A DNA stretch of 38,204 nucleotides from Seison nebaliae. Lineage: Eukaryota. How positions within the stretch are numbered: position 1 is the stretch's first letter; each line of letters begins with the position of its first letter. This document shows positions 1-27,300 of the stretch, in pieces. The DNA lies in NCBI GenBank assembly GCA_023231475.1, contig JALJEE010002290.1:1-38204 (forward strand). Reading direction: 5' to 3'. Below the pieces are notes generated by a model. The model worked only from the letters and a program-made list of their open reading frames with translations. It had not been told where the DNA came from and made no database searches. Both the position numbers and the translations under genes were made by a program.

Positions 1-600
1 GTACTTAGCTAACAGACTACTACATCTACGTTTCATCGGGAGAATATCACGAAAGTTCGGAATAGATCTATTCTTAAACCGACTGGTCGTTGTCATCGAG
101 ATGGGAAATGACGATAATGAAGAAAGAGAAAAAGAAATTGAAAAAGACGTATCACTAATGGAGACGAGAATATTCGACATCATAATAGATAACCAATATT
201 TAAGGGCTTCAGGAAGTTTACAGAATGAACGGAAAGTTTGGGGCCCATTATCATTGGAGGAAGGAGAACGGTTGCCCATACTCACGTAATTACGATTAGC
301 TTCTGAGTTCTGTAGAACGAAATCTAGTGAGATTGGAATATGATCAGAGAGAGAAGAAGGAATAGAGTCATGTAATAGAGAACATCCCAACACGTACCTT
401 CTCAATGAAGAAGACACGATGATGTGATCGATCCATGAGCTACCACAAGAAGAGATAAATGAACAGGTGTTATGAGGATGGAAAGCACGATCGACACACC
501 ATGCTTGAGAAATAGAGAGGAATTCCTCCAGCCTAGTTAGCGAAGATAAACTTCTGTCGAAGTCAATGTTAAGATTTCCAACGACAACGAAGACAGGAGT
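1..600 (-). mobile_element. Non-LTR retrotransposon (LINE) ORF2 fragment: C-terminal half of an APE-type endonuclease domain, 5'-truncated, running off the window edge
   Basis: Manual translation of the minus strand 600->1 gives 200 stop-free codons. It is absent from the ORF track because no stop lies in the window. The frame reads TPVFVVVGNLNIDF...SSWIDHIIVSS...SLSDHIPISLDF, with the GD(F/L)N-like (579-568), IDH (432-424) and SDH (348-340) motifs in APE order and spacing. In-frame TAA TAA lie immediately upstream of 600. Confidence 0.85.
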
Positions 601-1103: not shown

Positions 1104-2859
1104 TTAAGCTGAATGTGAATTTGAATTAAATTTGAACTTTAAGTATATCGACCGATGTGCATTGAATATTGTGGGGGTCCATAAAATATGAATTTGTCGA
1201 GTAGATGTTTTTTTCAAAAATAAATTATTCAAATTTCCCATTAATCCTTTCATGTTACACTGTTGATTGTAATTGACATAGAGAGTATCGGATGACGGTT
1301 TTGAATCAACAATTGATTTTAATTCCGAAATGAACTTCTGTTTAGAGAGTGAACGATAATATTCCTCTTTCTCTTTAATAAGTCGTTGCAATCGACAACT
1401 TATCATTTTCATTGAATATGTCGAATTCTCATCATTTTTCAAGTTGGTTGTTAGACTACCGAAATAATTCTGTTTATTCCAGTCATGAATTTGTGCAATG
1501 AATCCACTAATGGCATTCTCGTCCGTTTCATTCGAAGTGGATGGTAACGATATGGAAACTAACAAGAATGTAAGAAGACAATGAACAAAAGATAAATAAA
1601 AGAAAATTAGAACTTTCTAGTTGTTTTTCTCCATTTTTATTTCTCGTACTTTTCATAAAAATTTCATAAAGGGAAGAGATTCCCTGATGAATATGACGTA
1701 CAGATTGACATGTGATATCGGTGAACATTAAATTTTTACAAATAAAATTATTATGATCTAATTCCGATAAGTGATGTAATTCGCTGTATACGGAAAGAAA
1801 TGGACTGATTCCATTATCATCGTCTAATGACGGTGATGGAGTTGTCTCGCTAAAATGGAATTGTAGACGAACAGTATCAGACACGATCGAACGACGAACT
1901 ACATTCTCCTCTACATAATATTGCCAATTGTTATTTATTTGTTGGAAGTTGATCGTGCGAATATCTTTCGAATACAAATCGGAAATACTTCTGAGAATTT
2001 CGGAATTATTTCCCAAAGTGACGGACGACACGTCGTCGATTCTCGCTTTAGAAATTATTCTTCTTCCTAATGATTTGAGTAACTCATTCCGTTGGATCTC
2101 TTCATTGGCATTGTTGTGTTTGTAGAACAACAATTTACTTTTGATCTCTCTCTCTGATTGGTACAGTAGCGAATCGACAAATTCATTATTTGTCTTGAGA
2201 ATCATCTCGAGATAATTCTGTAATTTTTCCTCGTTGTTCATGAGAGTTTCAATCAAACTTTTCAGTTGTTCGATATCGAATTTTATAAATTTCGATGTGG
2301 TGATGGTAAATGAGCAGGGTTGTTGCTTCACTAAAAATAAATTGGCAAGAACAGTAATATGAAGAATATCCAGTGTGACTTTAGGAATTGATTGTATTCG
2401 ATAATAACATGAGGTCAAAGATCGACGAATCGAAGGTTGTCGAATGTTAACTGGATGGTCATCGATCAATGACGCTAATCGATCGGGTAATGTTACGAGA
2501 ATGTTTTCAGTAATGAATTGTTTGGGAGCTAAGAGGAAAGCCCAATTATTAGTAGATTTATGACGGTTCTGTTGATATAAGAAATATTTGAAAAAGTTCT
2601 CAATAACAATGGATTGGGAAGTAAGTTTATGAATTTTTTCTGTCCTCAATTTTGATTTGAACATTTTACTGTATCGGTAGAAATAGTTTCGTTTGTCGAT
2701 GTAGTTCGACAAACGATTGATGGATGATGAGCAGCTGTCGTGGAGATGTGTGGAGAGCGGAATATTTGAGATTTCATCCAAGATAATACTGGAATCGATT
2801 GATAAGGATTCATTGAAGAGAATGACGAGAAATAGCACGACGAGTTTAGACGGAAACAT
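1104..2859 (-). CDS. Secreted protein of unknown function, about 566 aa, 2 exons (2859-1614, 1558-1104)
   Basis: N-terminal signal-peptide-like MFPSKLVVLFLVILFNESLS. A 55-nt GTT...TAG intron (1613-1559) joins the 443-aa and 153-aa ORFs in frame (...QLE-I-SISLP...). No family recognised. Confidence 0.75.
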
Positions 2860-3649
2860 TATGGGTAAGAAGTGATGATTTCAATAAAATCTTTTCGACA
2901 AGTCGGAACATTAAGAGAAAGAAAAAAATAACAAGATTAATAATGACTAGACAGAAAATAAAATGTTTAATTACAATCACAATGAGAAGATTGTCGAATA
3001 ATTAGGAGAATGAAGGAAATCACCGAGGCGTGTCCATTTAAAGTTGAGGAAAATATAATTGGAAATGAACGATGTTGTGTAATTAGAAAAATATGAAACA
3101 AAGACAAAACAAAACAAATGTTAATGAAAATTCCAAATTGTTTCATCAAATGTATCGGGAAAAAAATAAACAAACCTATTTCGACAACTTCACAAACAAC
3201 TTGTCATTATGATTTGGATGCGACATTTCTCGATACTCATCTTACCTCGTCGACGAAGAGAAGAAATTATGTAATTTCATGGTAATATAAAAATAACAAA
3301 TGGAAAATATATCTAATCAAATTCATCATTAATCTTCGTTTAATTCAATCAATTCATAGTTACAATCTCATCTAGCTATAAATTAGTTAGTTGCAAATGA
3401 TAAACATTGTAACGGATAACTGACTGAGAGGAAATATTTATCTTTTCCTTCCCAATCTAAAGACGAAACTATTAAATAACGATCATTTCATTTGAGAAGA
3501 TTTCTTCAATTCTTTTTCTTTTTCGTCTACCGGTATCGTTTTTTCAACTTGGAAGTAGTGAGCAGGTAATTTATGAGCGTGGAAACCATAAAATGTTCTT
3601 AATTAGAAGTAACATAATTCTATCATTCGAATACGGAACAACGACACAC

Positions 3650-3726
3650 TAGTTAACTAAATTAATTGGAAGGCAAGATCTTGCCTGGTCTTGAGCAAGG
3701 TCTTACTGACAGTCGAATGTCAGTAA
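3650..3726. repeat. Cluster of adjacent palindromes and hairpins
   Basis: TAGTTAACTA (3650-3659); perfect 16-bp palindrome AGGCAAGATCTTGCCT (3671-3686); wobble stem GGTCTTG-AG-CAAGGTC (3687-3702); 9-bp stem TTACTGACA-GTCGAA-TGTCAGTAA (3703-3726). Confidence 0.7.
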
Positions 3727-4305
3727 AAAATTCCAATTGATTCTATTCAAAAGTTGAATCGGAAAGTAGTGGAAATAGAAAGATGTATATTGTGATCAGA
3801 AATACTTTAATTTCATCTGATAAGAATTATGAGAATATCATAGCAAACTAGATATCCACCTCCATGCAGCACACTTACTAATTTTTGTTAATTATATTAA
3901 GTGATCACCACTCTATTGAATGATGAGAATTAATGAGATTTTAACATGATTTCATAAATTTATTGATTTATTCTCAAGGAAAATATTTATTAGTGAAATA
4001 TGTCTTGTTTTTGAGAGTGTGGGTGGTAAATAATTTAGGAAAAGGAAATTAGTTTAATTGAATAAAAATTAAGTGATCAAATTCAATAAAGAAATCGGCA
4101 AGACAAATGAGAAGAATAACAAATTATCATGTTTCTAAAAATTGGGAGAATTCGAACGGAATTTAATCTACGTCGTCAAAATGTACAAAAGCGGACCATT
4201 TTCTATTGGCGCATTCGTTTAATTTTCATAAAAATTATGACATATTTTGTGGCCTATTCGGAAAGAGTGAAAATAAATTGAGAGTACATTTAATATAAAA
4301 AAGGT

Positions 4306-4785
4306 TTACATGCGATTGTATGATGTCGTTCGCTTTTTGTAGAACGTGTAGGCAGCGAATGCAATGAAAGTTGGCGCAGCCGCAAGAAACATCCCCCCAA
4401 TGAAACTACCCAAAGAAAATGAACTTTTCTTCGGTTTTTTCGTTGTCGTTGTCGGCGCTATCGTCGACGTTATCACTGGTACTTTTGTTGTTGTTGTTAT
4501 GATAGTAGTAGTAATAGTGGTGGTAGTAGTAGGAGCAACTGTCGTAGTAGTAGTTGTGGCGATTTTAGTTGTCGAAGGAGTTGTTGTTGTTGTTGTTGTT
4601 GTAGTGGTGATACTCTTCGTGGTTGTAGTAGTAGAAGAAATACTCGTTGTTGTAGTGCCATTAGTAGATGTGGCATTTACCTCGACGTCGTTGAAATTAG
4701 GAATGGCCGTGGCGGTTGGTGCGGAAAATACCAATGCCAAAATGGAACAAATGACGAAAATGAAGATGGTGAAATTACGATTCAT
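4306..4785 (-). CDS. CD164/porimin (TMEM123)-family type I sialomucin, 159 aa, single coding exon
   Basis: Signal peptide, Thr-rich mucin stalk, juxtamembrane SFSLGSFIGGMFL (family motif FD.xSFIGG), TM helix, basic stop-transfer residues and a terminal YNRM (Yxx-Phi sorting motif, like YHTL in CD164). Confidence 0.85.
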   Translation of the reverse strand: MNRNFTIFIFVICSILALVFSAPTATAIPNFNDVEVNATSTNGTTTTSISSTTTTTKSITTTTTTTTTTPSTTKIATTTTTTVAPTTTTTITTTIITTTTKVPVITSTIAPTTTTKKPKKSSFSLGSFIGGMFLAAAPTFIAFAAYTFYKKRTTSYNRM

Positions 4786-5272
4786 CGTGGAAATAAAACT
4801 CTAATAAATCTCTGAAAAGAATGAGAAATGTTGACGAAAGATGAAAGAGTGACGCGATAAAATGTCGAGAAGAGAAATTAATATAAATTATGAAATAAAA
4901 AACAGGAGGAAAGTGTAAATTATATTATAAGACGTTTTCTGCAACTCACATCAATGTGAGTGTGCTATATTTATTTAGTGGGTGATTTTCTTTGAAAGAG
5001 AATGATTAATTTTCTTTCTCGTGTCAATAGATTAAGTTCGGTTGAAAAATCTTCTTAAAAGTCTTAGCTCAATCCGACAAGTTAGTCAACTTTCTTTTAT
5101 GTTTACATGTGTGAACGTATTCCATTCATTAATCATCTTATGCAAACGGACTCTCGTACATACTCGGCACGAACATTAGATAAACAAGGTACAATTGTGT
5201 TGAATAATATTTACATTTGTTGAGTGAGCACGTAAAAAGTGGAGAGAAAACGAAGAGAAATAATTCGATGCT

Positions 5273-6766
5273 TCACCAATTCATTTCTGTTAAATTTAAT
5301 GCAGGAGCATTGTTTGTCTTATTAAGAAATTGCATGTCAATTAATTTATGAAATTCATTTCTATCAATTTGCTTCTCTACTGACACAAGCTGCTCTTTTA
5401 AACGTTTCATCATTTCTTCTCCATTCTCCAAGTAATCGTGTCGATTGTGCAATGACTCATTCCAATTCTTTATAGAAAGATCCATATTCGTCTTCTTTAA
5501 TTGTCCTCCTCCATTCAGACATCCATTCGGACATGCCATCATTTCAATAAATATCACATTCTTTCTATTTTCGATTTTAAGTTTACGAATTGCTTTCTGA
5601 ATATTTGCAAATCCATAAATCTTTAATAATCTCCAAGTGTTACCTGACGTATCTGTTAAATGATATTCCAAATAATTCTTATTCTTTCTTTGACATTCCA
5701 CCATTACTCCCTCCATCTTCTCTTTCAACACATCAAGTATAAAATCGACATGACCATCACTTGTTGCAGCCGATCTTCTTCCACTCAATTTTTTCTTCAA
5801 TTGAATTTCATTTATAACTGACAGTTCATTCAACTCCTCACTTCTCATCTCAATCAATGATAATCCATCCAAATTAATCAATCGATCCACCTCATCTAAT
5901 TCATCGAATTATTTTGTAATTAAAATCAATTCTCTAACCCGTTGTCAATACACAATGAATATTCGGTAATTTCTCTTCACGATAAACTTCCAATTTCTTA
6001 TCATAACATGACGCAATAGTGATATGAATGAAATTCTCACCGAACTTCTTTCTTAACAATATTCCTATAATTTCTTGAGCTGATCGAAGTGGACAAATGG
6101 ATTTTAATAAATATTGAGTGGTTCTCGTCTTTTCCGCGTAACATGTCCATCCTGGACACGAACTACAAATTAAAGGAAATCGATTCTCGTTTGCTGATAG
6201 AATGTCCTCGATTATCATCATTTCTTTCATTTTCAATAATTCATGTCCCATTTCCGTCGTTATCACATAGTGACAACCTTTAGTTAAATGAATCGACAAA
6301 TATCATCAATAATAAAACCTTTCTCATGGAAATAATTCGAAAGTTTCTTCTCAATCATTTCGTTCGTCTCATTCTCTCGATTGGCAAACGAGCTGATACA
6401 TTGACTTGCTATCGACACAACAATTATTTTCTTTTGACTTACTAAAATTGGAGAATTAACAAAAAAAAGTTTTTCAATAAATTTATAAACGATTCTCCTT
6501 CAATAACTTATTGAATTGATCGGGATTTTGTTCGGATAACAGAATCGATTCAGATGACGTTATACATCCACTACAAGCCAAACAATCTTTCAATGAAATC
6601 GGTTCGAATTTCACATCTTTCTCATTCGTCGATGATACTTGGCTTCCTGGAATAATGCATTCCTTCCATCAATTTTAATATTTCTTTATCATAAAAACCG
6701 AACTAATGAAGGATTGATGAAGTCATTGAGATCATTCAATTTTAATCCGCTAGAAAAATTTGCCAT
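5273..6766 (-). CDS. CIAO3: Cytosolic Fe-S assembly component 3 (NARFL/IOP1/Nar1), 439 aa, 5 exons (6766-6704, 6662-6491, 6441-6319, 6277-5939, 5895-5273)
   Basis: Spliced frame has FSSGLKLNDLNDFINPSLECIIP, ISLKDCLACSGCITSSE, SSCPGWTCYAEKT, CYDKKLE, EMMACPNGCLNGGGQ and a C-terminal Trp, all Nar1-family hallmarks. Introns of 41, 49, 41 and 43 nt restore the frame (1320 nt total). Confidence 0.93.
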
Positions 6767-6959
6767 TTCAAGTAATTTTTTAATAATATAATAATATATA
6801 ATAAGACTTATAATTCTAATTTTGGGATTATTTTGGGAGAGAAAAACAAAATATTTATTAGTTTCATTAAACAAAATGTTGAAAATGAAAAATTTCATCT
6901 TCCTCTTTCTGTTTTAGGTTAAGCGATTTGCTTTTTCAATTCGTTGAAAGTGAAGAAAG

Positions 6960-7184
6960 ATGAACAGAACGATCCAATTTATCAGAGAGTTTCACAAACC
7001 GTTAATACGGTTTCGTTATGGTGTCAACATGAAATTGGAATCGAAAGAATTAGAAGAAACGACGACGCAGTCAAAAAACGATGGAAATAAGAGTCTGTTC
7101 ATTGAACAAATTCCAACAAAATATTATCGAAGATTTGCTGGAGAGGATGAACAATTATGTATCAATCAAGGAGGAATTTCATAA
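6960..7184 (+). CDS. KGD4: Mitochondrial 2-oxoglutarate dehydrogenase adaptor KGD4 (MRPS36/YMR31 family), 74 aa
   Basis: N-terminal HKPLIRF and C-terminal IPTKYYRRFAGEDEQLCINQGG match the family pattern H.PLI(R/K)F ... LP.KYRR......E...I..GG. Confidence 0.85.
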   Translation: MNRTIQFIREFHKPLIRFRYGVNMKLESKELEETTTQSKNDGNKSLFIEQIPTKYYRRFAGEDEQLCINQGGIS

Positions 7185-7391
7185 CTATCTCCCTCCTCCA
7201 ACTCTTCACTTAAAAGAAATAATTTATGAAATGAAAAAATAAAATTTTTTATTGTTTATAAAAAGGAGAGGAGGAAAATATATAGATTGTTCTTTTTTTT
7301 CATTCTCATTCTTCATCAACTTTCTTTTGAAAGAAGATTTCTTTAAAATTTGTATGAGAATAAAAATTAGTTGATAATTATTGAGTGTTGT

Positions 7392-8300
7392 TCATAAGAT
7401 GTTGATCCTTCCCACGTCTAATAGAAAGCCATTCTTTATCTGTCTTTTGCAAGTACACTCGAGACCAGACGTATTATATCTCCCAATGAGGAATTGACAT
7501 TTCGGACATTTGATTTCTCCTTTTTTACCTTTCGTTTTTGCCAAATTACAATCGGAATTACATTCGATGAAATCATTACAATTCAAATGGACACCATCAC
7601 CATAGTTTTGCAATCTTTCCAATTCACTGGGTGATTGATTGGCAATGAAGACCATATGTCTCTTAAACGTGTCTTTCTCACACAATGTCACCCTACAATG
7701 CTTACATTGAACTTCTTTGTGTTTGGCTTCTTGGAATTGTTTCTCCAATTCTACACTTAATTCTTTCTGTAATTGATGAATTAAGTCGGTGACTGTGTTA
7801 AATTTGGGATGTTTGTGAAGGAGAATTTGTGTGTAATCTCCAAATAATTCGTGCGTAATATCACATTTCATAAGACTATAAATTTGAAGTTGGTGTTGGA
7901 ATCCAATATTTGGATTGACATATCTCCTTTCTCGCACATATTTTAATGCTTCACGATCTCCCATCTTCTTCGACTTCATTAAATAACTTATAACGATTGT
8001 TGGTGATCGGGAGAATCCAACCAGACAATGAACAAACACATTCTCACTTCCATCTTTTTTGAATTTATTTATAAATTTGTAACATTCCTCAAATCGACTC
8101 AATAAATCCGTTTGGGGCATATCAGCTACATTGATATGTAAACATTCGATATTGAGCGTTTTCGCCACTTTCTCCACTGCTTGGAAACTGTTCCGTTCGA
8201 TGATTGAGATGATTCCTCGAATGTTGTGACGTTCGAAGAATTTTCGGTTTTTCCCATCCTGCAAACTTCCCAGATAGAGGTACTCCTCAATTTTAGACAT
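7392..8300 (-). CDS. DUSP12: Dual-specificity phosphatase 12 (YVH1-like) with C-terminal zinc-binding domain, 302 aa, intronless CDS
   Basis: ATG at 8300 (MSKIEEYLYLGS). Catalytic VHCLVGFSRS, acid loop VADMP, NPNIGFQHQL. C-terminal CKHCR...H...C...CPKC...CTC zinc ligands typical of DUSP12/Yvh1. Confidence 0.88.
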   Translation of the reverse strand: MSKIEEYLYLGSLQDGKNRKFFERHNIRGIISIIERNSFQAVEKVAKTLNIECLHINVADMPQTDLLSRFEECYKFINKFKKDGSENVFVHCLVGFSRSPTIVISYLMKSKKMGDREALKYVRERRYVNPNIGFQHQLQIYSLMKCDITHELFGDYTQILLHKHPKFNTVTDLIHQLQKELSVELEKQFQEAKHKEVQCKHCRVTLCEKDTFKRHMVFIANQSPSELERLQNYGDGVHLNCNDFIECNSDCNLAKTKGKKGEIKCPKCQFLIGRYNTSGLECTCKRQIKNGFLLDVGRINIL

Positions 8301-8943
8301 TTTACACAACACTCTTTTGAAAATAGAAAAAAAAAATTAATAAATGAGAATAGGGGAATGATGGGGAAGAAATCCACAATATTTATTTACAAATTAGATT
8401 GTTTCATGAAAAATTGTTCATCTGCTTCACGCTATTATTTCGAACGGAAGTCGTTATTCTTAGCAGGTCTAATATAAAAAATTACAACTAATTTAATAAC
8501 ATTCTTACATTGGAAGATTGGAGAATTATGGGCGGATATATTTTCGCCACACGATTTCTCCTAAAAAATTACTTCTTAAAATTAGTTCAACAAACTTCCC
8601 TCGAATATTATACACGTGAAATTCATTTGAAAAATTTATTCAAATGATTATTTCTCAATCGGAAATTAATTCGATGAATAAATAACTTTCTTAATTAACT
8701 TATGAGTTAAATGGAAATTAATTCATTTTCTTTTTGTAATAATAATTCAACAGATATTACACGTCGATTTTGATGTATTTAATAAGAAATTGTGGTGAGT
8801 TGGAATATTAATTAAAGAAATGTTGAGAAATAGTTTCACAAGATCGTCGTCCCTTGCGTAACGATTATAATGAGGAGAGAGAAGAAATTGAATTTAATGT
8901 TCCACCTCTAATGTGCTCTAGATGATTAGAGATGATTCATTTA

Positions 8944-9860
8944 TTATTTGGTATTACGATTCATCAGTAACAGTTCGTCATATTTGGATACATCTTCGAA
9001 AATTAAGTTGAATTGTTCCATTCGCTAAAGAAAAAGTGGCGAAATGAAATGTTAGAAAATGGAGAATGAACTTTCCGATTAGGTAAACATTTCCCGAAAC
9101 ATTCTAATAGAAGAGGTTCTTCCTGGACAGATTGTTGGAAATCTGTTAACGAAACACGACCATCATGATCCTTATCCTAAAATGGAATGAAATGGAAATT
9201 TCATTATTGTCTCTCAACCATTTTCTTTAATGCAATCTCCACTAATTCTTTAGTGCTCTCTTCTGGATCTTCTTCACTTGGCTGCTTGATGACGCTATTC
9301 TTCAACATTTTGAACATTTCATCACGAGAAATAAAAGAATCTCCATTTTCATCATAAACATTAAAACAAACTAAAAAAAATGATTGTTAGATCGAATTCT
9401 GTTATTAGAGAGAAGAAGAAAACATTTAATTTTTTCCGATCGTTTTCCTCGAACGAACACACTTAGTCCCGTCAACCATTCTTTCATGCAGAGTGATGAA
9501 TCATTATCTCTATCGAAAGCATGATGAACTAGATTAGTTAATTAATTTGAATGTTAAAGGAATGAAGGAGAAACCTCGGTCGATGAGCATTGCATCAGTT
9601 AAATCAAATGTGTTGTGAAGAAAATCACAAAATTTTGAACGATCCAACTTACCATCTTTTGAATTTTTTGTCAATTGAATGAATAAAAGTAGTAGAGTTT
9701 CCATTTCGGTGGTTGAGACTAGAAAAAAAAATTTTAAAAACAAAAAATCATTTCAGAGAAGATGAAAACAGTGTATCGGTTCATCAATTGATCTGATGAC
9801 TTCCGACATCGTCTTCCGAGTTAACGAATCGATATGATGTCCTTTCTGACGATTTGGCAT
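8944..9860 (-). CDS. EFCAB1: Calaxin (EF-hand outer dynein arm-associated calcium sensor), 225 aa, 6 exons (9860-9770, 9718-9575, 9528-9424, 9370-9219, 9176-9072, 9024-8944)
   Basis: Manual splice gives HFSTTEME...[35 protein letters not shown]...[12 protein letters not shown]...[42 protein letters not shown]...[23 protein letters not shown]...[13 protein letters not shown]. Introns are 51, 46, 53, 42 and 47 nt. Mostly missed by the ORF track. Confidence 0.93.
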
Positions 9861-9881
9861 TTTGATTAAATGTGAATCCTG

Positions 9882-9894
9882 GTAATTTAGCAAC
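9882..9894. promoter_or_regulatory. Degenerate RFX X-box near the calaxin start
   Basis: GTAATTTAGCAAC has a perfect RGYAAC half-site, the same spacing as the 10011 box and 11/13 identity with it. Confidence 0.45.
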
Positions 9895-10010
9895 AAGCTG
9901 AGAATATGTATTAATTTCTCATTCGGAATAATTTGGAGAAATGTAATGAAAGCTTCTTGTCGATTGTTAAGCGTGAGAATTTGAAAAAAATTAAGTTTGT
10001 TTTCTGTGCA

Positions 10011-10023
10011 GTAACCTAGCAAC
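10011..10023. promoter_or_regulatory. RFX X-box in the calaxin/CCDC146 bidirectional promoter
   Basis: GTAACCTAGCAAC fits GTNRCC-N(0-3)-RGYAAC exactly. It lies 20 nt upstream of the CCDC146 ATG, between two divergent motile-cilium genes. Confidence 0.75.
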
Positions 10024-10043
10024 TACGACAACTATCGAGAGCG

Positions 10044-13000
10044 ATGGATGATGATAAAATACCACACATTGATAAGTTGAAGGAAGAGTTAGGAGCATAT
10101 GAGATTGATGAGTTTTCGATGGAGAAAGAGGACGATGAACGACATTTGACGGTTGACGAAATTTTGGAGAAGGTTAAAAATTAGTTTTCGTTGTTTTGAT
10201 GCATTGTTGTCCTTAATCTACTTCCTCCAATTAACTCATTATTTTTAGTTGATAGAGGAAAAATCGATTAGTGTTCCTCATGCAGCTAAACTGCACGAGA
10301 AATATGAACATATGAAAGAAATTCTGGAGAAGGTTAAAGGAAGTGAGACATCATTCCTCCATTCGGCAAAGAAGTTGACAAATGAATTAGAAAATAAAAA
10401 AAGTATTATTTCTCAATCTGAATCTACAACGACTAAATCTACCGTCAATGACGGGAGTGAAACGGGTAAATTACGTCAGGAATTATTGAAAGCGTACAAT
10501 GAACTCGCCTTATTTGAGGAACGGGAACAAGCTCAGGAGATGCTCATTAGTAAGTTGAAGATTGAGAAGGAGTTATTGCAGAAAGAGAGTGAGCGAAATG
10601 AGAAGGCGACTGAAATGAGGAAGTTCCTCAACAACGCAAAAGAGGAACAAGATGAAATTAAAAGTGACATATCGATGACTAATCAAAAGATTGGTCAAAT
10701 GAAGGAAAAGATTCATGAGTTGAAGGAAGATTTAGCGCGGAAAGAAGATGATCTTCGAGAAATTCGAAGAACAGAAGAAGATCTTCAAGTTTTTCTCACT
10801 CTTCTTCTCCATTGAGAGAATTCATTTGGAAATTAGATGGAAATTAGTAACGCGAAAAAAGAGAAAGAAAAATTCCTCAAATCACAAAGTGATATCGAAA
10901 CGAAAATTAAGTTTAATTTTTTTTCGTTTTTCTAATTTGTTAATAACAAGTTTCTTTTAGAATTGAACAAACCAATGATGCAAAAAGAACAAATGATTAC
11001 AGTGAATTATCGGAAAGAATATTGGGAGAGGAACAATCGAAACGAAGTTTAGAATCGAAAACTTTAGACGGATTGCAACAAGTGGAGAAGTTGCAAGCGA
11101 AAATTAATATACAAAATAGTCGAATTGATGGTATTCTGATGAAGACGAATGAAGAGAAAGTGAATCGGGAAAAATTAGCGAGAGACAGGTTATTTCTCAA
11201 ACCGATGGTTTTATTAAAAGAAAAAAATTTTCAGCGAAATGTTAAGTCTCAGTTTGAAACATACGGAAGTGGAGAAGAAGCAAGGAGTGGAAGAGAATTC
11301 GCATGCTCGCCACGAATGTGATCAGTTGAACAAAACGTTGAAAAAGAAGGAGCATGATATCAAGATGATGGTGGAGAATATGAAAAATATTCGGAATCAT
11401 TTAGATGACTTAAAATTTCAGAAGCAGACGCTCGAAGTCAAATACAAATTAGATGGAACATCGAAATTATCTGCGGATGAACAATTTGAGAATCGTTTGA
11501 ATGCTCTGCGCCAAGAAACGATAAATTTACGACGTCAATTATTAAAACAAGATGGAATTACAAGTAACTTCTCTCAACAATTTGAATTGTTATTAGAAGC
11601 GGAAGACAATTTGATGTATCAACAATCCAATTGTCGAATAGAGTCCATCGAATTATTGAGGATTGGAACCATAAAAGTTATTCCTTATAATTTATCAGTG
11701 GATCGTTAATATGGTTTATGATAAGAGTGAAGAACGAGAAAATAAAGCGAGAGAAATGAGAAAGGCCAAGGAGAAATTGAGAGAAGCCGAAGAAACGATA
11801 CATATGAAAGATGCGGCGATTGAGAATTTGGAAAAACAAATGAAATTGTTGAACAATCGTTTATCGATATTCACTGAAATTTATGGAAATATGAAACAAG
11901 AAAGGAACAAATATGTCTCTCGAATTCAAAGTGCCGTCCAGAAAACGAATGAGATCAAAGAGAAACTGAAAATTAAACAGAATGAAATCGATATTTCTCG
12001 ATCAACATTAATTCATAAAGATAAGTTTTACATATTTTTCTTATGAAATTTCCTTTAACTAATGAAATATGTTTAGACAATTACAAAAAACTAGAATGAA
12101 ATTAACTCATTCGTTGAAGATGAGAGATGAAGTGAGGTCGGATATTCAGAAGGAGATAGTGATCAAAGGTAAACTCAATGAGAATAAAGATCAAGTTCAA
12201 ATCGATATTGAAAAATATTCGCGACTATCCAATTTGTTGGAGAAGCAATTCGTTCAGTTACGAGAGAAATACGACGAAGGAAACAAATCGAGAAATAAAT
12301 TGTTGGTAATTTTCAATTCCGTTTTTTTACCACTTCTTTTTTTAGGAGTGTGGATTTCGCTAAACGTAATCAGGAATTTGTGGTTCTTAATGAGAAGTTT
12401 AACATTCTTGAATCGAAAATTAGCGAAGCAGAGATGTCGATGCAAGCGAGAGAATCAGAAATTAAATTCCTCGATCTCATGAAGAAAGATGACGAACGTC
12501 AAATTGATATTTTGCACAATCGTTTGAGTTGTAACAAAGATGTGGGACATGAATTGACCGGGAAACAAATCCAACTTTCCATCATCAAAGACAAGATTTC
12601 GAAGATGAATGAGAAAATCGAAAATAATCCTGCTGTCCGTTACATTGATAAGGAGAAGACTATCGACATAACGAACGTTATGAAGAAGATTGAGGGATTG
12701 GAAATTGAACGGACGAATAAAGAACGATTATTATTAGAGAAAGAGTTTATGTTACAACAAATTTATTTGATGACAAGTGCTATGGAGAAGGATGTGGAAA
12801 AGTGTCGGAATAATTCACTGAAAACGGCAAAAACGGTTAAATTGACTCATTTTAAAATTATACCATTTTCTTTTCAATAAAAAACCATTGATTTTTCCAG
12901 GTGAATAAAGACGGACAGGAATTACGTGAGATAACCAAACGAATTATGAGTAAAGTGGCAGAGATTGCAATGATTAAGGCACAGTCTTTTGTCATTGAAC

Positions 13001-13344
13001 ATTCGGCAGATAAACTAAGGAAAGAAGTGGAGGAGGCATATAGAAATTATGAAATGAATGAAGCGCCAACGAAAAAGATTGAGAAAGAATGGATACAATT
13101 TAATCGAATTAATAGAATGACAATCGGTCAATCTATCGATTTCTCGAAAGAATTTATCGATTTTTATGAAATGAAAGATGGAACATTCACTACAGCGGAA
13201 CCACGACCAACAGCTTATGAATGTGTAACGAATGAACTACCATTATCGAAACCGTATGGTGCATTGGCACCATTTAAACCCCAAAGTAACGGTGCTAATA
13301 TTCGTCATATTCGTAAACCGAATATTCCTTCGATCGAAATTTAA
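10044..13344 (+). CDS. CCDC146: Coiled-coil domain-containing protein 146 (axonemal, MBO2-like), 956 aa, 9 exons (10044-10172, 10249-10788, 10837-10910, 10961-11188, 11235-11676, 11726-12024, 12077-12301, 12346-12835, 12901-13344)
   Basis: Long coiled coil with KQERNKYV and the diagnostic C-terminus TTAEPRPTAY...LPLSKPYGALAPFKP...GANIRHIRKP...IEI. Eight GTT-AG introns (76, 48, 50, 46, 49, 52, 44, 65 nt) join all ORF fragments into 2871 nt in frame. Confidence 0.92.
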
Positions 13345-13575
13345 ATAAATTTTTCCGAGAGGAAAATGAAATTATTTCTTTTTGAATTTAATTAAACTTT
13401 CCTAATCAACTTTGTCTGGGAAATGTTTATTGAATGATATCCATCAATTGTAACGAAATGAAAGATGAGTAATAAAATGTCCATATAAATACCAATTATT
13501 TCTCTCCCGTATTAGATAAAGTGAATTAACATCCGAGATATTTCCTTCTTGTCATCTTTTCTTTTTCGGTCGATA

Positions 13576-13875
13576 ATGCAATCATCTTTTGCAAATAATC
13601 CATCTTCGAATAATTTGAATCAAACAGTATTCAATTATTATAGAAGAGCGAGATCAGTGGCAATTTTAGGATCGTTATGTGCTTCATGTATGGCTTTCAT
13701 TTTCTTTCCTTTATTAGCTGCATCTATGTTGGCATTGGTTATCTATTTCGGGAAATGGCTCGACACATTACAAGACGTCACTACATCGTCAGGATTGTTG
13801 AAATCGATAGATTTTCGATGTTTTGCGATTCTTTTAATTGTCATATTCCTCCAACTTCGACATTACATTCGATAA
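13576..13875 (+). CDS. Putative small membrane protein, 99 aa, unknown family
   Basis: ATG at 13576. Hydrophobic stretches SVAILGSLCASCMAFIFFPLLAASMLALVIYF and CFAILLIVIFL, with coding-like composition in a short gap between two genes. Confidence 0.5.
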   Translation: MQSSFANNPSSNNLNQTVFNYYRRARSVAILGSLCASCMAFIFFPLLAASMLALVIYFGKWLDTLQDVTTSSGLLKSIDFRCFAILLIVIFLQLRHYIR

Positions 13876-14022
13876 TCGATTGAACTCTACGAATCTCCTT
13901 ACTGGCAAATAAGGAGAAGTATTCAACACAATTACCTCTTGTCTCATGGAACGGGAAGAAGATGGGTTGAATTTGAGAACGATAAATTTATTTAAATTTT
14001 TAAAATAAAATTTCACCCTTCT

Positions 14023-15836
14023 TCAAATGATGACTGCTTTTCTTAAAGGAGTTTGATATAAATTGGAAGGAAGATTAGAATTAAGGAGATTAATATGCAC
14101 AGGATTCCCCGCCATGATATTGATGGGCAGATACCATTCAATATGGAAAACATTTAGATGAGTTTTGGTTTGTGGAAGTCGAAGTTGTTTAAATGTTTTC
14201 CTTTTTCCAATCAATCGTTCGTCGGAATGTATAAATTCTGTTTTCGATAATAATCCTTCATCATCTATATATTCACCCATCGTTCCTGGCCACCAACGAA
14301 ACGAATCATTATAATTGGCGAGATTAGTAGTAGTGATCAGTTGTTTGTCATAACTGAGAAGGAAATCGAATTTTAAACGATATTTCACATTGACACAAAT
14401 CGTCTCAAACGAATGGTTGGAGGAATAAGGTACATGAATTGAGAATGGAACACGCGATTCTTTCGGAAGACAATTATAGAATTTTTGAGTTACAACTCTC
14501 ATTGAATGTTGTTTACTGTCAAATGATTCCTCATAATTTTGAAGAAGTGAATAAGTCTCTTTAATAATTTCATGACATTCAAGAGAAATGAGACATTTAA
14601 TACAAAACAAATTGGAATCTTTAAAAGACAAATATCCATTAATTTCACTGCCGAGACGGTAAGTCAAACTGTCGGGTGGATTAACGAATGACTTGAGATA
14701 TTTTGAGGCGTTCCCTCGCAACAAAGTTATAACTGACACGTTCTCACCTTCACTCAATGATATATCGAAGGATTGAAGTGATTTCGAATATGACGTGAGA
14801 GATTGAATGAATTGGAGAAGGAAATTGAGTCGGAGTCGATCGTTGGTATGATGCCAAGCACTTTCTTTCACATAAAGTAAATTGGACGTGTACAAATTGA
14901 CCTTGTCCAAATACAGTTTTTCTGCATGGTTTTCATTGACAGATTCATTCGATTTTTTCCCATAATTCAACCAAATCGATTCCATCAATTTCTTCTGATT
15001 TAGATTGAAAATTTCGTCCTTCAAATTCTTCATATGATTTCCGTTCAATTGACGATAGAACTGAATGAGAAGATTATCATTATCCTCTTCGTCGTCAAGG
15101 AGACGGAAAGCATTCAACATCGAATTTTCGTCCTTATTCCAGCCATTGGTCGATTGAGAAATGAGATAGAGATTCTCTCGCTCTCTCATCGTCTTTTCTG
15201 TCTGTCTCATTCGATTGCTTGATATTCCTTTACTTGTCTGAATGAATAATTCATTTAATTCTCTCAGTTGGAGAACGTTGAAGGGGAAGACGGATGTAGA
15301 GAATTGTTTGTTTGGTCGTTGTAAACAAACGATAATACGATGGTGATAACTGACATCCCTACCGATGTAAGTTGGAGGAACGTTGATCGGAATCATTTCT
15401 TCATATTCAACTAAATAAAATTGAAATGAAAAACGATAAGATTAAAACGAACATTCTATGGATGGTAATTTATTGGTGAGTTGTAGTGATGTACAAATAA
15501 ATTGCACGTCGCTACAATAACATAAATATCCTTTTTCGTCTGCAATTCAATATCACATAAAAGTTTAGTGAACGTAAAAATGAAACATGATCTATGAGGA
15601 TTGAACGAATAACGATTCTCCGTCTTCTTCGCCAATTCTTTATTGCGAATAAATTCTAATGGAATTCTCACGTTCCTCGACGATAAGTAACATCGACATT
15701 GCATTTGGACCAGTGCCCAATTAATGGCTTCCTCCTCCACATCTTCTTTTAGACTTAAACTAATCTGAGCACGAACTCGTTCGCCACCAATGTATGTCTT
15801 CCGTTTTCTGAAATGAACACTTACTTCGATCATCAT
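14023..15836 (-). CDS. RGP1: RAB6A-GEF complex partner RGP1, about 574 aa, 3 exons (15836-15587, 15539-15453, 15410-14023)
   Basis: MIEVSVHF...YIGGE...INWALVQMQC...FNPHR...EYEEMIPINVPPTYIGRDVSY...CLQR, later YRLGSEING, SFETICVNVKYRLKFDF and EWYLPINI, following the Rgp1 pattern. Introns are 47 and 42 nt. Confidence 0.88.
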
Positions 15837-16588
15837 TCAATTCATTTCATTCATCAACATGTACTACTAAGCCAACTAACTGAAACAAATTAATTAAAAC
15901 TATCTTAATAAACACAACAGAAACTACAATATACAATTAGCGGATGTCCAAGTTGTGACTGGCGAATTTTGCTACATTTGGCTCTTATTCTTATTTTTTC
16001 GATACAAAAAACTACATTCATGTCAAACAAAAAATAGGCAGGCGGCAACGCAATAAACGCAATCAATCAATTCGAATATTACACTGTTATATACGAATGT
16101 TCGTTTCCATTATGTTTCAATTACGAAATATAAATCGAAAAAATAACTTAATAATAACAGTAATAATATGATTTAAGGGAAAATGTGATTTTTGTATAAA
16201 ATTATTTAAGTTATATGAAAAACTTAATTGGAAGGAACCACGAATTCGAAAGCAGCATTGCTAAACATGAAGTGACTGTGGAGATTAATGGTTTGTCATT
16301 TTATTTCTTCCTTATATTCCTAGTCCTATAATTATTTTTCTTTATGTCTTCCTATGATGATTAGGTTGATATTGATGAACCATAATATTCGAAAAAAGTT
16401 TCCTTATTAGGTTACATTATGATATTTTAATTACGTTTTGTTAGTGAATTGTCATAGTAACTCACAGTAATAACTTGCAAGAAGATTGAGAGGCCAAAAA
16501 TTAAAGAAGGAGTGAAGATAATAATGAGTGAAATATAAATATTATTTATTAGAATAAAAATTTAAGTGAATTGTTCCAAAACTTTATA

Positions 16589-16715
16589 ACACGTCATTGA
16601 TATCGGAAAAAAATAAAGGAGTAGGCTCTCATCGTTCGCGATTTGAATGAACGGAAAATAATGAAAATTTAAAATTTTTAAAATAATTCAAAAAGCTGAC
16701 ATTATACACGTCATC
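16589..16715 (-). promoter_or_regulatory. Two UPRE/XBP1-CREB3-type bZIP sites upstream of CRELD
   Basis: ACACGTCAT at 16589-16597 and ACACGTCATC at 16706-16715 (minus strand ATGACGTGT and GATGACGTGT), about 300 and 185 nt upstream of the CRELD ATG in very AT-rich DNA. Confidence 0.5.
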
Positions 16716-16897
16716 GTTGTTATACGTATAATTTAAGCGCAATAATTGAATTGAAAAAAAGAACGAACAAACAAATTTATTATTTTCCTCATTTCATATT
16801 TTTTCCTTATTGAAGTTCCCATTTGCATTATATACACGGACATTTTCCGGGGAGATTTTGAATAAAATCATTTTCTGTTTATTTCATTTAATACCAA

Positions 16898-19033
16898 ATG
16901 ACTAAAATTTGCTGGTCTGCGACATTGCTTCTACTAATTCCCTTTCTATCCGTCGTCTATGGGGACAATGATCTGTTGCTGAGATGTCGTTATTGTCATG
17001 AAATTGTCGACGATTTCCAGAAGGTTTCTTCTTATTATTTCTTGAAAAAAGTTGTTATAGTGAATTATTGACGTTAGGGTTTAGGTTCAACAAAAAAAGG
17101 AAATTTCGGAGGTGGAAATTCTGATTGGGAGTCGAGTCGCTTAGGAAATTATGAAACGAGTGAAACGAGATTTTTGGAGATATGGGAGAAGTTGTGTGAG
17201 AATTCGAAAGAAGTGAAACAATGTCATTATTTGGCGGAGGAGTTAGAAGAACGGATTGAAGACTGGTATATGGAGAAGCAAGAGAAAGAACCGAATCTCT
17301 TCAATTATTTATGTGTAGAAGGGAATAATGGATGTTGTCCGAAAGGGACATTTGGTCCAAAATGTGGAGAATGTCTCAGTGATAACAATGGTCGCATCTG
17401 TTCCGGTCATGGTAAATGTGATGGTGATGGATATAAATTCGGTAATGGAAAATGTTCTTGTGACACTAGTTATTCCGGTGATTTATGTGACGAATGTAAA
17501 GAAGGATATTATGAAACAAAGAATGATAATGGAGATTTTGTTTGTAAAAGTTTTTCCTCTCATTCTCCTTTCTCATTCTTTCACAATAATAATTATTCTG
17601 TACAGAATGTCATGAATCGTGTAAAGATGAATGTACGGGCGAAGGAGCCATATCATGTATAGAATGTGGTATCGGATGGGAACGTGTAGATAAGAAGTGT
17701 GTGGACATTGATGAATGTGCATTGGAAGATAAAGGAAATTGTACTGATGGAACATATTGTTTCAATTCCAGAGGATCTTTCAGTTGTAAACGTTTTCTAT
17801 TCTATTTCTATTTTTAAAACTAAATAATTTTAATATATTTCAAGCGTGTAATCGTGCTTGTAGTAAATGTTTTTCTGCTGATAAGAGTAATTGTGAAGAA
17901 TGTTCAACCGGTTATCGACATGTGGAAAAAGATGGAAAGAAGATCTGTCTCGATATCGATGAATGTATCGCCGGTCATGATTGTAAAGAAAATGAATTTT
18001 GTGTCAATCGAGCTGGCTCTCATGAATGTGGAAGTTTATCACTTTTATCAATTTTTCCATTTTTAATTATATTTCAATAGAATGTCACGAAGCTTGCACT
18101 AGTTGTGATGGACCAAAACATTCTCATTGTTTCCATTGTAACAACGGTTTTATTGAAGATGAAAAAGTGAAAAAATCGAAGAGTAAAAGAAAGAAGTGTA
18201 TCGGTTCTATTAATTCACTTTTTTTTTTAATTTTCACAACTTCTTTCACAGATGTCAATGAATGTGAGACTGGGCAAATTTCGTGCAATGACGGTGAATA
18301 TTGTGAAAATAGTGCGGGCGGTTATAAATGTTCGGATTGTCATCGAAATTGTGAGAGCTGCACTGGAGGTAAAAGAACGAATTGTCTCACTTGTTCCGAA
18401 GGATTTATGAAGAAACTTACAAATAAAGATAAAGATGCGAAAGAAAATGAAATTCATTGTATCGGTTCCATTTCTCCATTATCTTTTCCATACATTTTAT
18501 GCATTTTTCAAATTTTAGACAAAAATGAATGTGAAGATCGACCGTGTGAGACAGCGCAATATTGTAAGAATCTGCCCGGTAGTTATGAGTGTCACGGTTA
18601 ATTGATTCTTTTAATCATTCATTCATTTCCAAATCCACACCAGATTGTCATCCATCATGTAAGACATGTGGCGGATCAAAAGATAACGTTTGCTCATCAT
18701 GTTTCGATGGTTATGAATCCAATCAACAGAATAATACTGAAGCGAAATATTTCAGATGTGTTGGTTCGTAACTAATCGATTATGATGTGACTGATAATTT
18801 TTTTTTTAGATATCGATGAATGCAAAGACAAACCTTGTAAATCCGATTTGGTGTGTACGAATACTCCCGGATCATATTTATGTGAACGAGAAATTGATAT
18901 GATGAGACGAACGGTGAAAGAAATACGTTCAGGTAAAGACAGTGATGATCCGAAACCAATTCCTCAAGAAGGAGATCTCTATGACGAGATGGACGTTGAA
19001 GAAGATAGTCAACAGAAACATGATGATCTTTGA
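16898..19033 (+). CDS. CRELD2: CRELD2-like soluble ER protein with expanded furin-like/cbEGF array, 576 aa, 9 exons (16898-17023, 17078-17549, 17606-17791, 17845-18033, 18081-18203, 18252-18464, 18519-18596, 18644-18763, 18810-19033)
   Basis: Signal peptide, CRYC (CxxC), WE-domain signature NFGGGNSDWE...YETSETRFLEIWEKLC, EGF CSGHGKCDGDG, five furin-like plus cbEGF pairs, no TM helix, and a C-terminal HDDL ER-retrieval signal. Eight introns of 46-56 nt give 1731 nt in frame. Confidence 0.92.
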
Positions 19034-20140: not shown

Positions 20141-20276
20141 TTTTTAACAGTTTTAATTTTAAATGAATAAAAAATAAAATGTAAAATTCAAAGATAAATT
20201 TATTTGGGAAGAAATGTAAAATTAAATATAATAAAATTAATATGGTATGGATAATTAACGACTTTTAAATTGATTC

Positions 20277-20444
20277 CCAAAATTCTTAACCAAATAATAT
20301 TGAGATTTGAGTAGAATTCCAAATTTTTGAACCAAATAACATTTAAATTTGTGTTGAACTCCAAATTTTTGAACCAAATAACATTGAAACTTGTGTTGAA
20401 CTCCAAATTTTTGAACCAAATAAGATTGAAATGAGAGAAGAATT
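20277..20444. repeat. 42-bp tandem repeat, 4 copies
   Basis: Units start at 20277, 20319, 20361 and 20403. Consensus is approximately CCAAATTTTTGAACCAAATAACATTGAAATTTGTGTTGAACT; the two inner copies are the most similar. Confidence 0.92.
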
Positions 20445-20554
20445 CCATAAATATTAAACACTTGGTCGATTTGGTTGAAACCATTCGGTTTGGTAGTCTC
20501 ACGAAAAGGGTTCAAAGTAATCATGTGATATTTGATAGATGACAAGACGAATAA

Positions 20555-24300: not shown

Positions 24301-27300
24301 AAAAGATGATAAATATTTGAATGAAGAGAATTATGAAATGATCGAAGGATTTCCTCTTCGAAGAGTGAATGATCGAAATAAAATAACAGATAATATTATC
24401 AATGAATTATTAAATCGAAATACTACTACTACTATTACATCAGTCACTCCAATGCAACATATTATTACGGAGAGTGTTCGACGGAATGTTGAGATAATTG
24501 CCAGATCGATTTTTGATGAGAATCATTATCCAATGTTATTGGAAGGAGAGACGAGTGTTGGAAAGACATCTGTTATCACATTTATCGCTAATAAATTAGG
24601 TCGTCGATTAACTCGAATTAATAATCATCAATTTATTGATGTGCAGGATTATGTTGGAAGTTATTCGTTGAATGTTAATGGATCAATGAAATTCAATGAA
24701 GGTGCTCTCATTCAAGCGATGAAGAATGGTGATTGGATTCTTCTCGATGAATTGAATTTAGCACCAGCAGCTGTTTTAGAATCTTTGAATTGTCTCCTCG
24801 ATGAAAATAAAGAATTGACGATATCGGAAACGGGCGAAATAGTGAAAGCTCATTCTGATTTCATGTTATTCGGAACTCAAAATCCTGCAGCTCGTTATGG
24901 AGGACGGAAACAATTATCGAGAGCTTTTCGAAATCGATTTATCGAATTGAATATTTACGAACCACCATCATTAGAAATTGTGGAGATTCTCGAGAAACGA
25001 TGGAATATGCCAAAAACATATGCTCGATTATTAGTGAAAGTGTCGAATGAGATCGAGAAACATCGAAGTAAATCAGGAATTGATGCTGGTATGAGACATG
25101 GTTTGGTGACATTAAGAGATTTGTTCCGATGGGCAAATCGATATCGATTAGGTGATATGGAATGGAAAATCGATTGGAAACAATATCTCGCTGATCATGG
25201 AATGATGTTGTTGGGAGAACGTTGTCGAGAGAAAGATGATCGAGAAATGATCCGTCAAATTTTAGAGAAAACCTTTTCCACCAAATTGTCCGATGATCAT
25301 TTATATGGAAAGAATGCCAAATCGAATGTAACGAAAAATATCATAAAAAAATGTTTGAAAATTTTGAAAGATGATGGAATCAAATCAGAATTCCAATTGT
25401 CTTTAACGAAGAATTTATTGAAGACGATCGTTCTCTCCATTGTGGCAATGGAATATCAGGAACCAATATTGTTAGTAGGAGAAACGGGAATTGGAAAAAC
25501 GAGTATTTGTCAATGGATCACTTCTCTCTATTATAATTACGAGAAAATGAATAATAAATTAGATATTATCAATTGTCATTTGAATTCGGAAACATCTGAT
25601 TTTATCGGTACTTTGAGACCATCACGTGGTGGGAAACATTTATTCGAATGGTATGATGGTATACTTGTTAGATGTATGGAAAATGGATATCATCTCTTAA
25701 TCGATGAAATATCGCTAGCTGAAGACGCAGTAATTGAGAGAATCAATTCAGTTTTGGAACCAGAACGAACGATTTATTTAACGGAAAAATTCCATGCTAC
25801 TCAAGAAATGATAGATGATGATAACGATGATGATGATGATGATGATGATGATATAGGAAAGAAACGAAATGCAGAAGATGATAATTGTGAAGGAGAAAAA
25901 CGAATTCGATTAAACGATCCTTCATCAAATCAGGACAAATCTGATCATTCGTTAAATAATCAGACGGTTGATAATGAGAGAATTGTGGAAGAGAAATATG
26001 ATCATATGAAAATTGAATTAAAAGCGAAAAAATCATTCCGTTTATATGCAACAATGAATCCTGCTGGTGATTATGGAAAGAAGGAATTATCGACAGCTCT
26101 CCGAAATCGTTTTACAGAAATTTGGATGGAGGAATCATTCGATATTGATGAATATTTCAATTTGGCAAGTAATCGATTAGTTCGTTCATTAACAAGATTA
26201 CCAAAAGGAACACATGATCGTTTCACTAGAATGTTGGTGGATTTTTGGATGGAATTTAAAGAAGATAAAAATAATTTATTAGCAACAACAACAACAACAA
26301 TAACATTGAGAGATTTTGTGAATTGGATACGTAATGCGATAGGAATTTATGAGAGGAAAACTGATCCATTATTTGGAAATGCTCAATCAATTTTTACAGG
26401 AATTGTCGATTCATTTATGATAACGATTGGTTATTATATTGGGACTGATTATTATACAAATCGATTGGAAGAATTGACGAAACAATTCGTCATTAATCAT
26501 CCACGAGCGAAAGAAAAAAAAATTTATTTATCATATTTAACACGTCAATCCATGTCGATTTTTTCCCCTCAATTCAATTTAACTTTTCCCATTAGACAAC
26601 AATTGAAATCGAATGTTTTTGATTTTACTAACGAAACTGCCCAACGAAATTTACGTCGTCTCATCAAATGTATTTCGGTTGAAGGACGTGCAATTCTTAT
26701 CGAAGGTCCACCAGGTACTGGTAAAACAGCATCAATCGAACGTTTGGGATCATTAATGGATATTGATGTGAGACGAATAAATTTATCGAATCAAACTGAA
26801 TTATCTGATTTATTCGGAAGTGATTTACCTAATATTGATGAGGAAATGATTGTCAATTCACAAGAACAATCGAAAGAATTATTCAAATGGATAGATGGTC
26901 CAATGTTAGCAGGAATGAAGAAAGGTGATTGGATTTTATTAGATGAAATGAATCTCGCTTCACAAGCCGTATTGGAAGGATTGAATAGTTGTCTCGATCA
27001 TCGAGGTGAAGTTTACATTAGTGAATTAGATCGAATATTTAAAATTAATTCACGTTCACGAATTTTCGCTACTCAGAATTCAGCGGAAACATGTATCGGT
27101 CGGAAACATTTGCCAAAATCATTTTTGAATCGTTTCATGAAATTATATTTCGAACAATATCAAATTAGTGACATGAAACAAATTGTAGAAATAAAATATG
27201 GGAAGAAGAATAAGTTCGATCTCTTTAACATCATTCCTCAAATCCTTCAACATTTCCCATCATCTCTTTATCATATCAATATTCGAGATGTGGAGAAATT

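Follow-up and report, generated by a model that had tools for sequence, protein, structure and literature searches.

Introns of animals usually begin with GTA or GTG. The published precedent for 5' splice sites (donors) that begin with GTT is the GUUUGU signal of Entamoeba, opposite which the U1 small nuclear RNA (snRNA) is altered to ACAAAC (Roy and Bowser, bioRxiv 10.1101/2022.06.08.495308). In Caenorhabditis elegans, 44% of the donors are of the //GURAG form (PMC11347140). The donors described here belong to Seison nebaliae, a seisonid rotifer with compact genes, a genome of about 46 Mb and two strains (PMC8351084). The window, i.e. the whole stretch of DNA that was analysed, is contig JALJEE010002290.1 over its positions 1 to 38,204 (38,204 nucleotides, nt). 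Six neighbouring genes of the window (an orphan gene, CIAO3, calaxin, a CCDC146/CFAP58-like gene, RGP1 and a CRELD-like gene) contain 28 introns, modelled from the DNA, reading frames, homologues and database protein models. Position +3 of the donor is T in all 28 of them and a purine in none.

A preliminary description of this DNA had stated that +3 is always T and that no GTRAGT consensus exists, and both statements hold: T was found in 28/28 donors and a GTRAGT-type donor is absent. Its count of five donors with +5G was obtained again and corresponds to a slight enrichment (5/28, p=0.04). Positions +4 (A6 C7 G2 T13) and +6 (A10 C3 G2 T13) vary freely, as had been claimed, both matching the intron bulk (T in 13/28 each versus 0.50, the intron interior being 50% T), and positions +4 to +14 carry only 0.00-0.16 bits against that bulk. 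The exon side of the donor shows a weak bias, with -1G in 12/28 (p=0.006), -2A in 17/28 (p=0.008) and -3A in 16/28 (p=0.02). The proposed three-letter GUU donor is accordingly supported, except that the signal is not purely three letters long given this weak exon-side bias and the slight excess of +5G. The one claim that proved wrong is that AT richness would favour A as much as T. Over the whole window TpA is depleted (odds 0.60), TpC (1.49) and CpG (1.33) are in excess, and the base after GT is T at a rate of about 0.40-0.41 versus 0.19 for A. The probability of finding T in 28/28 donors by chance is 7e-12 if T follows GT as often as in the whole window (0.40), 4e-9 if it is as frequent as in the intron interior (0.50) and 8e-8 at P(T|T)=0.56. 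Under the harshest null, drawn from GTs internal to the introns, 23/33 of which are followed by T (about 0.70), it is 5e-5 (Fisher p=0.0012). The +3T pattern survives a null corrected for TpA avoidance. Treating the introns, which come from six neighbouring genes, as independent gives a GTT share of at least 0.90 (one-sided 95% bound). It is very probable that +3U is nearly fixed genome-wide.

The other features of these introns are those of the U2 type. Their GT..AG ends restore a conserved reading frame and their 3' end is pyrimidine-rich with a YAG/HAG acceptor (-3 is T18 C6 A4 G0; -5 is T in 19/28), so that they appear to behave as U2-type introns but lack the GTRAGT donor. U12-type introns are characterized by an RTATCCTT donor and a strong branch motif. 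No donor of the 28 matches that type, which was rejected. As to a branch point near the 3' end, CTRAY is matched in 6/28 introns at scattered distances and a strong motif was not seen. A shifted register, GTT-NN-GT, was rejected as well, GT occurring at +6/+7 in only 1/28 donors and G at +6 in 2/28.

All 28 donor hexamers listed in the preliminary description, each with its coordinate and strand, are present in the DNA. For three genes the junctions could be compared with database proteins, P0121 (CRELD-like), P0122 (CCDC146/CFAP58-like) and P0123 (CIAO3-like), which are identical to the window's gene products, carry the label Seison nebaliae and when mapped back give exactly one GT..AG solution per junction. 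This comparison covers 20 introns (outside it are the orphan intron, five of calaxin and two of RGP1) and yields the same donors in 20/20. The 28 introns are as follows.

Orphan intron: 1559..1613, minus strand, 55 nt, GTTCTA..TAG; weakest-supported of the 28, 566 amino acids (aa) spliced versus 443 aa unspliced
CIAO3 intron 1: 6663..6703, minus strand, 41 nt, GTTCGG..AAG; database model, top on homologue profile
CIAO3 intron 2: 6442..6490, minus strand, 49 nt, GTTTAT..TAG; database model, homologue profile
CIAO3 intron 3: 6278..6318, minus strand, 41 nt, GTTTTA..AAG; database model, no in-frame rival
CIAO3 intron 4: 5896..5938, minus strand, 43 nt, GTTAGA..TAG; database model, at least 25 bits over three GTG/GTA rivals
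Calaxin intron 1: 9719..9769, minus strand, 51 nt, GTTTTC..TAG; no in-frame rival
Calaxin intron 2: 9529..9574, minus strand, 46 nt, GTTTCT..TAG; colinear with PDB 7rro_I3 residues 72|73|74
Calaxin intron 3: 9371..9423, minus strand, 53 nt, GTTTTC..TAG; 7rro_I3 residue count 107 to 159 fits introns 3 and 4 jointly
Calaxin intron 4: 9177..9218, minus strand, 42 nt, GTTGAG..TAG; 7rro_I3 residue count jointly with intron 3, low-depth related piece ends right after GTT
Calaxin intron 5: 9025..9071, minus strand, 47 nt, GTTCAT..TAG; no in-frame rival
CCDC146/CFAP58-like intron 1: 10173..10248, plus strand, 76 nt, GTTAAA..TAG; database model, gap-free versus 8glv_LP at the junction
CCDC146-like intron 2: 10789..10836, plus strand, 48 nt, GTTTTT..TAG; database model, gap-free versus 8glv_LP
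CCDC146-like intron 3: 10911..10960, plus strand, 50 nt, GTTTAA..TAG; database model, gap-free versus 8glv_LP
CCDC146-like intron 4: 11189..11234, plus strand, 46 nt, GTTATT..CAG; database model, homologue alignment gapped here, GTG rival
CCDC146-like intron 5: 11677..11725, plus strand, 49 nt, GTTATT..AAG; database model, gap-free versus 8glv_LP
CCDC146-like intron 6: 12025..12076, plus strand, 52 nt, GTTTTA..TAG; database model, gap-free versus 8glv_LP
CCDC146-like intron 7: 12302..12345, plus strand, 44 nt, GTTGGT..TAG; database model, gap-free, better canonical site G|GTAATT 4 nt inside
CCDC146-like intron 8: 12836..12900, plus strand, 65 nt, GTTAAA..CAG; database model, gap-free versus 8glv_LP
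RGP1 intron 1: 15540..15586, minus strand, 47 nt, GTTTCA..CAG; in-frame rivals all GTT, low-depth related piece breaking off at intron nt 4
RGP1 intron 2: 15411..15452, minus strand, 42 nt, GTTCGT..TAG; Pfam Rgp1 match starts just 3' of the acceptor, GTA rival at -42
CRELD-like intron 1: 17024..17077, plus strand, 54 nt, GTTTCT..TAG; database model
CRELD-like intron 2: 17550..17605, plus strand, 56 nt, GTTTTT..CAG; database model, repeat spacing
CRELD-like intron 3: 17792..17844, plus strand, 53 nt, GTTTTC..AAG; database model, repeat spacing
CRELD-like intron 4: 18034..18080, plus strand, 47 nt, GTTTAT..TAG; database model, repeat spacing
CRELD-like intron 5: 18204..18251, plus strand, 48 nt, GTTCTA..CAG; database model, repeat spacing
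CRELD-like intron 6: 18465..18518, plus strand, 54 nt, GTTCCA..TAG; database model, repeat spacing
CRELD-like intron 7: 18597..18643, plus strand, 47 nt, GTTAAT..CAG; database model, repeat spacing
CRELD-like intron 8: 18764..18809, plus strand, 46 nt, GTTCGT..TAG; database model, repeat spacing

The acceptor AG lies 41-76 nt 3' of the donor and 26/28 introns measure 41-56 nt. Once spliced, the frames of five of the six genes are fully open (439, 225, 956, 574 and 576 aa). Every intron had been described as frame-restoring, which in the strict sense does not hold for the orphan, where the unspliced frame still encodes a protein. Rival donors were defined as frame-compatible GTA, GTG or GTC sites within 45 nt of the modelled donor; 18/28 introns have one, and the 10/28 that have none all use GTT. 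On a profile of 90 full-length CIAO3 homologues, out of 149 retrieved, the modelled splicing scores 349 bits and seven rivals score 308-338. PDB 7rro_I3 aligns colinearly with the calaxin exons over three junctions. At seven of the eight CRELD-like junctions the cysteines are spaced as in copies of these repeats that lack introns, and seven of the eight CCDC146-like junctions fall where a weak alignment to the CFAP58 homologue 8glv_LP (E 2e-9) has no gaps. Rival donors lose wherever homologues permit a clear comparison. The least secure donors are 1613, with a GTA rival 36 nt upstream, 11189, in a gapped region of the alignment and with a GTG rival, and 15452, with its GTA rival at -42.

Other searches were less informative. 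RGP1 exons 1-2 gave no relevant Pfam match and exon 1 no PDB match, and the CRELD-like protein had no PDB match at 1e-20. The six exon/intron length chains found 0 matches among the 19,906 rows examined of the transcript-alignment table of PMC8351084, in the first rows of which deletion gaps are mostly 42-92 nt, similar to the window introns. The orphan gene (1104-2859, minus strand) encodes a hydrophobic N-terminus, and its unspliced form would end with a hydrophobic tail; splicing adds about 150 aa carrying a faint carbonic-anhydrase match (E 0.0075). The unspliced protein from 2859 is absent from the database and an Atlas search gave no usable match. As for the DNA itself, four DNA runs of one sample are identical to the window over 16960-18880 with zero differences, and reads of run X1 agree with it over the pieces listed between 502 and 17855 (runs X1, X2 and X5 behaved as DNA). 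The GTT donor pattern is not an assembly error, because the DNA runs match the window without differences.

Within 24 kb of coding sequence, every 41-56-nt GT..HAG stretch was scored for intron-likeness with +3 ignored. Look-alikes starting with GTT amount to 4/32 on the sense strand versus 31/75 on the antisense strand (p=0.0035), and in synonymous shuffles T makes up 0.37 of look-alike +3; at a stricter threshold, 1/15 start with GTT versus about 6.9/18.5 in the shuffles. Because coding-strand look-alikes rarely start with GTT and GTC or GTA look-alikes must stay unspliced, +3U is probably actively read rather than passive, and the earlier proposal of a read +3U gains support from this depletion. 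The midasin gene (21305-35698, plus strand; 4,796 aa) has no intron, the neighbouring genes having one per 200-300 bases, and an identical intronless protein is present in the database. It provides two natural negative controls.

26544..26595, plus strand: midasin look-alike, 52 nt, U-rich, GTC..TAG, intron-like score 9.9, with a nested 42-nt GTC version from 26554; probably unspliced
27708..27759, plus strand: midasin look-alike, 52 nt, U-rich, GTA..CAG, score 9.6, in the range of true introns; probably unspliced

Both are taken as unspliced because splicing would break the midasin frame, intronless in the database. Midasin holds seven in-frame look-alikes, two of them with spanning homologues, and keeping the piece is preferred in 36/36 homologues for one and in 7/9 for the other (the nested 42-nt piece at 26554, where 2/9 favour cutting). 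Thirteen introns have a nearby non-T GT, and in 6/13 the modelled donor is a poorer match to canonical U1 than this neighbour, as with the G|GTAATT four bases inside intron 12302. Low-depth pieces (runs X2, X4 and X5; 9216-9372, 15583-15743 and 17883-18011) are about 82-88% alike to the window, mostly with third-position changes towards G/C, and probably stem from a second related lineage in the DNA. The two that reach a donor both stop 3-4 nt into the intron (calaxin intron 4, 3 nt, exactly after GTT; RGP1 intron 1, 4 nt), and none of the four low-depth pieces in the CRELD region extends to a donor. Look-alikes, better-pairing sites and low-depth pieces agree, and we infer from them that GTT is selected and not passive. 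GTT alone is not sufficient, because an exonic GGAGAAG|GTTAAA at 10325-10337 (plus strand), of identical context to donor 10173, is unused in the database model. Word depletion in coding DNA is unspecific (GTT observed/expected 0.96 and 0.64, GTA still lower, GTRAG z=-0.2).

We lean towards the view that an intron-rich animal has swapped the ancient six-base donor code for an obligatory GUU. U1 would have abandoned its distal pairing, disappeared or been rewritten, and the third base would now be as strictly required as the catalytic GU. The preliminary description had put forward U1 U6->A, or changes in U6, U1-C, LUC7 or PRP8, as possible causes. As to the reader of +3U, we tentatively propose nt 6 of U1, predicted to be A, together with short-intron definition, a proposal to which we give somewhat less than an even chance. 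The intron would first be located through its length of 41-56 nt, its high U content and its terminal HAG, probably with the assistance of a TIA-1/Nam8-type U-binding protein. The register would next be set by a U1 of the sequence 5'-ACUAACCUG, forming three Watson-Crick pairs with GUU and another at -1 where G is found, with the A-rich exon end bound at U5 loop 1 and distal U1 pairing at +4 to +6 given up. Position +3 would be as fixed as +1 and +2 because, without distal pairing, mismatches in the core cannot be compensated. The contact of human U6 G44 with +3 is only a weak one (PMC11732430), and the known base-pairing partner of this position is thus U1 nt 6 (PMC1779574).

U1 with A at nt 6 (A6) exists in nature. 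A scan of metagenome contigs for U1 genes whose nt 6 is a purine returned nine loci, four of which were discarded as chance matches, as were all three matches of a U1 pattern scan of viral contigs. Four loci are intact A6 U1 genes in two versions (138-141 bits), whose host looks animal-like and whose conserved U1 variant could pair with GUU donors.

L004:1080-1240, L007:343-503, L005:2888-3048 and L009:347-507: intact A6 U1 genes, flanks repeat-rich, non-coding, 80% alike
L006:1-2934: U1/U2 cluster, one U2 and several U1, namely canonical (121 bits), A6 (85 bits) and two cut copies

Several points weigh against a Seison U1 with A6 and against the donor rule itself. None of the A6 U1 loci is from Seison, for which A6 is a prediction from the donor pattern, and an Rfam scan of the window found only a transfer RNA (tRNA) and no snRNA gene. 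A6 U1 would form about 5/9 Watson-Crick pairs on average, short for a stable duplex, so that proteins must help. Canonical U1 pairing leaves +3 variable in other animals. In the majority of lineages whose donors have changed, U1 is still canonical (yeasts, Giardia, Trichomonas, Thecamonas and Mamiellales; Roy and Bowser), and many tandem donors of C. elegans and Arabidopsis begin with GTT, no change of U1 having been found there (PMC1779574). All 28 junctions are modelled, and the database annotation may come from a predictor trained on the same GTT bias. The look-alike test is also weaker at stricter thresholds (p=0.024, 0.044 and 0.057), and some of its hits overlap.

The reader could instead be the catalytic core, through U6 (a G44-U wobble with U6 unchanged, or an A at that position) or an altered Prp8 pocket, with U1 canonical, degenerate or lost. 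The likeness of +3 to the catalytic positions +1 and +2 would then be accounted for, its invariance with no signal beyond it resembling an active-site rule. U6 G44 indeed faces +3 (PMC11732430), C. merolae and trans-splicing can do without U1 (PMC10158995), rotifers trans-splice (PMC11347140), and the slight +5G enrichment points the same way. GUUUGU pairs better with an unchanged U6 (Roy and Bowser), but such pairing predicts +4U, +5G and +6U, and here +4U and +6U stay at background; moreover, Entamoeba retains its ACAGA box while U1 changes (Roy and Bowser). We regard a core reader as rather unlikely. A protein reading +3U next to canonical snRNAs, either a diverged U1-C/LUC7 or a TIA-1/Nam8-like factor at the intron start, fits with introns that are 50% U from +4 onward and with Entamoeba, whose U1-C is highly diverged and which retains a NAM8/TIA-1 candidate (Roy and Bowser). 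A U-tract binder should, however, raise U at +4 to +8 over the intron bulk, which is not seen (0.03-0.10 bits versus background), and such a reader seems improbable.

A further alternative dispenses with any special reader: U-rich introns, TpA avoidance and relaxed donor selection would make +3U a strong majority, and the small sample and the training of gene models would accentuate it. The TpA odds and the T after most internal intron GTs go in this direction, as do the restriction to six adjacent genes and the in-frame non-T rivals available on paper in 18/28 introns. Yet 28/28 is improbable even at 0.70, the 10/10 introns without a non-T rival are all GTT, rivals lose in clear homologue comparisons and a passive bias does not account for the scarcity of GTT look-alikes in exons; we regard this account as improbable.

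The window contains further features.

1-600, minus strand: LINE-like endonuclease fragment, multi-copy (Pfam Exo_endo_phos_2; elevated depth, many variants)
4306-4930, minus strand: mucin-like membrane protein gene, MGC-24/CD164-like by a weak Pfam match; protein starting at 4785 absent from the database; U-rich stretch ending TTTTCAG 26 nt 5' of the ATG, a possible intron of the 5' untranslated region or trans-splice acceptor
7392-8300, minus strand: dual-specificity phosphatase gene without introns (Pfam DSPc), presumably DUSP12-like; exact protein in the database
13576-13875, plus strand: 99-aa membrane protein, intronless; exact match in the database
About 20270-20450 and 20660-20740: short tandem repeats, intergenic, 5' of midasin
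36445-36538, plus strand: tRNA-Met(CAT) gene, interrupted 3' of the anticodon by about 20 inserted nt, probably an intron, which is unusual for tRNA-Met in animals

If true, the pattern described here amounts to a genome-wide rewiring of 5' splice-site recognition within Metazoa. Seison donors offer a direct test of what enforces +3, be it U1 nt 6, U6 G44 or a protein, and bear on the minimum donor sequence required where introns are located by size and U content; the GTT rule is also relevant to the annotation of seisonid and related genomes. A literature search, outside which subscription papers largely fell, found no GTT-only donor pattern described in any animal and no Seison or rotifer donor consensus. 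Splice-signal terms retrieved nothing on a donor consensus from the accessible parts of PMC8351084 (main text and both supplements), PMC10125929, PMC3464624, PMC10639083, PMC7310846 and PMC8022279.

The window introns share GT..AG ends and a pyrimidine-rich 3' end with canonical metazoan U2-type introns, and their weak exon-side A/A/G bias recalls the U5-class AG//GU donors. They depart from the canonical donors in that the U6-class //GURAG occurs in 0/28, -1G in only 12/28 and a purine at +3 never (PMC11347140, PMC11732430). In C. elegans and Arabidopsis, organisms with short or U-rich introns, GTT is likewise usable at donors, but there as a tolerated alternative with canonical U1 (PMC1779574), whereas here it is the sole form seen. 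With Entamoeba, the model case for A at U1 nt 6, the window shares a near-fixed U at +3, GT-AG introns and AT richness. However, positions +3 to +7 are fixed in GUUUGU(U), with GUUUGN in 97-98% of donors, whereas here only +3 is (+4U 13/28, +5G 5/28, +6U 13/28), and Entamoeba is intron-poor with a constrained branch point, whereas the present host is an animal, with 2-8 introns in each of five genes and no strong branch motif seen (Roy and Bowser). Overall, transformed donors have been reported mainly from intron-poor microbes, where the signal became longer and stricter; the intron-rich animal described here seems to have done the opposite, one base being changed and fixed and the remainder dropped.

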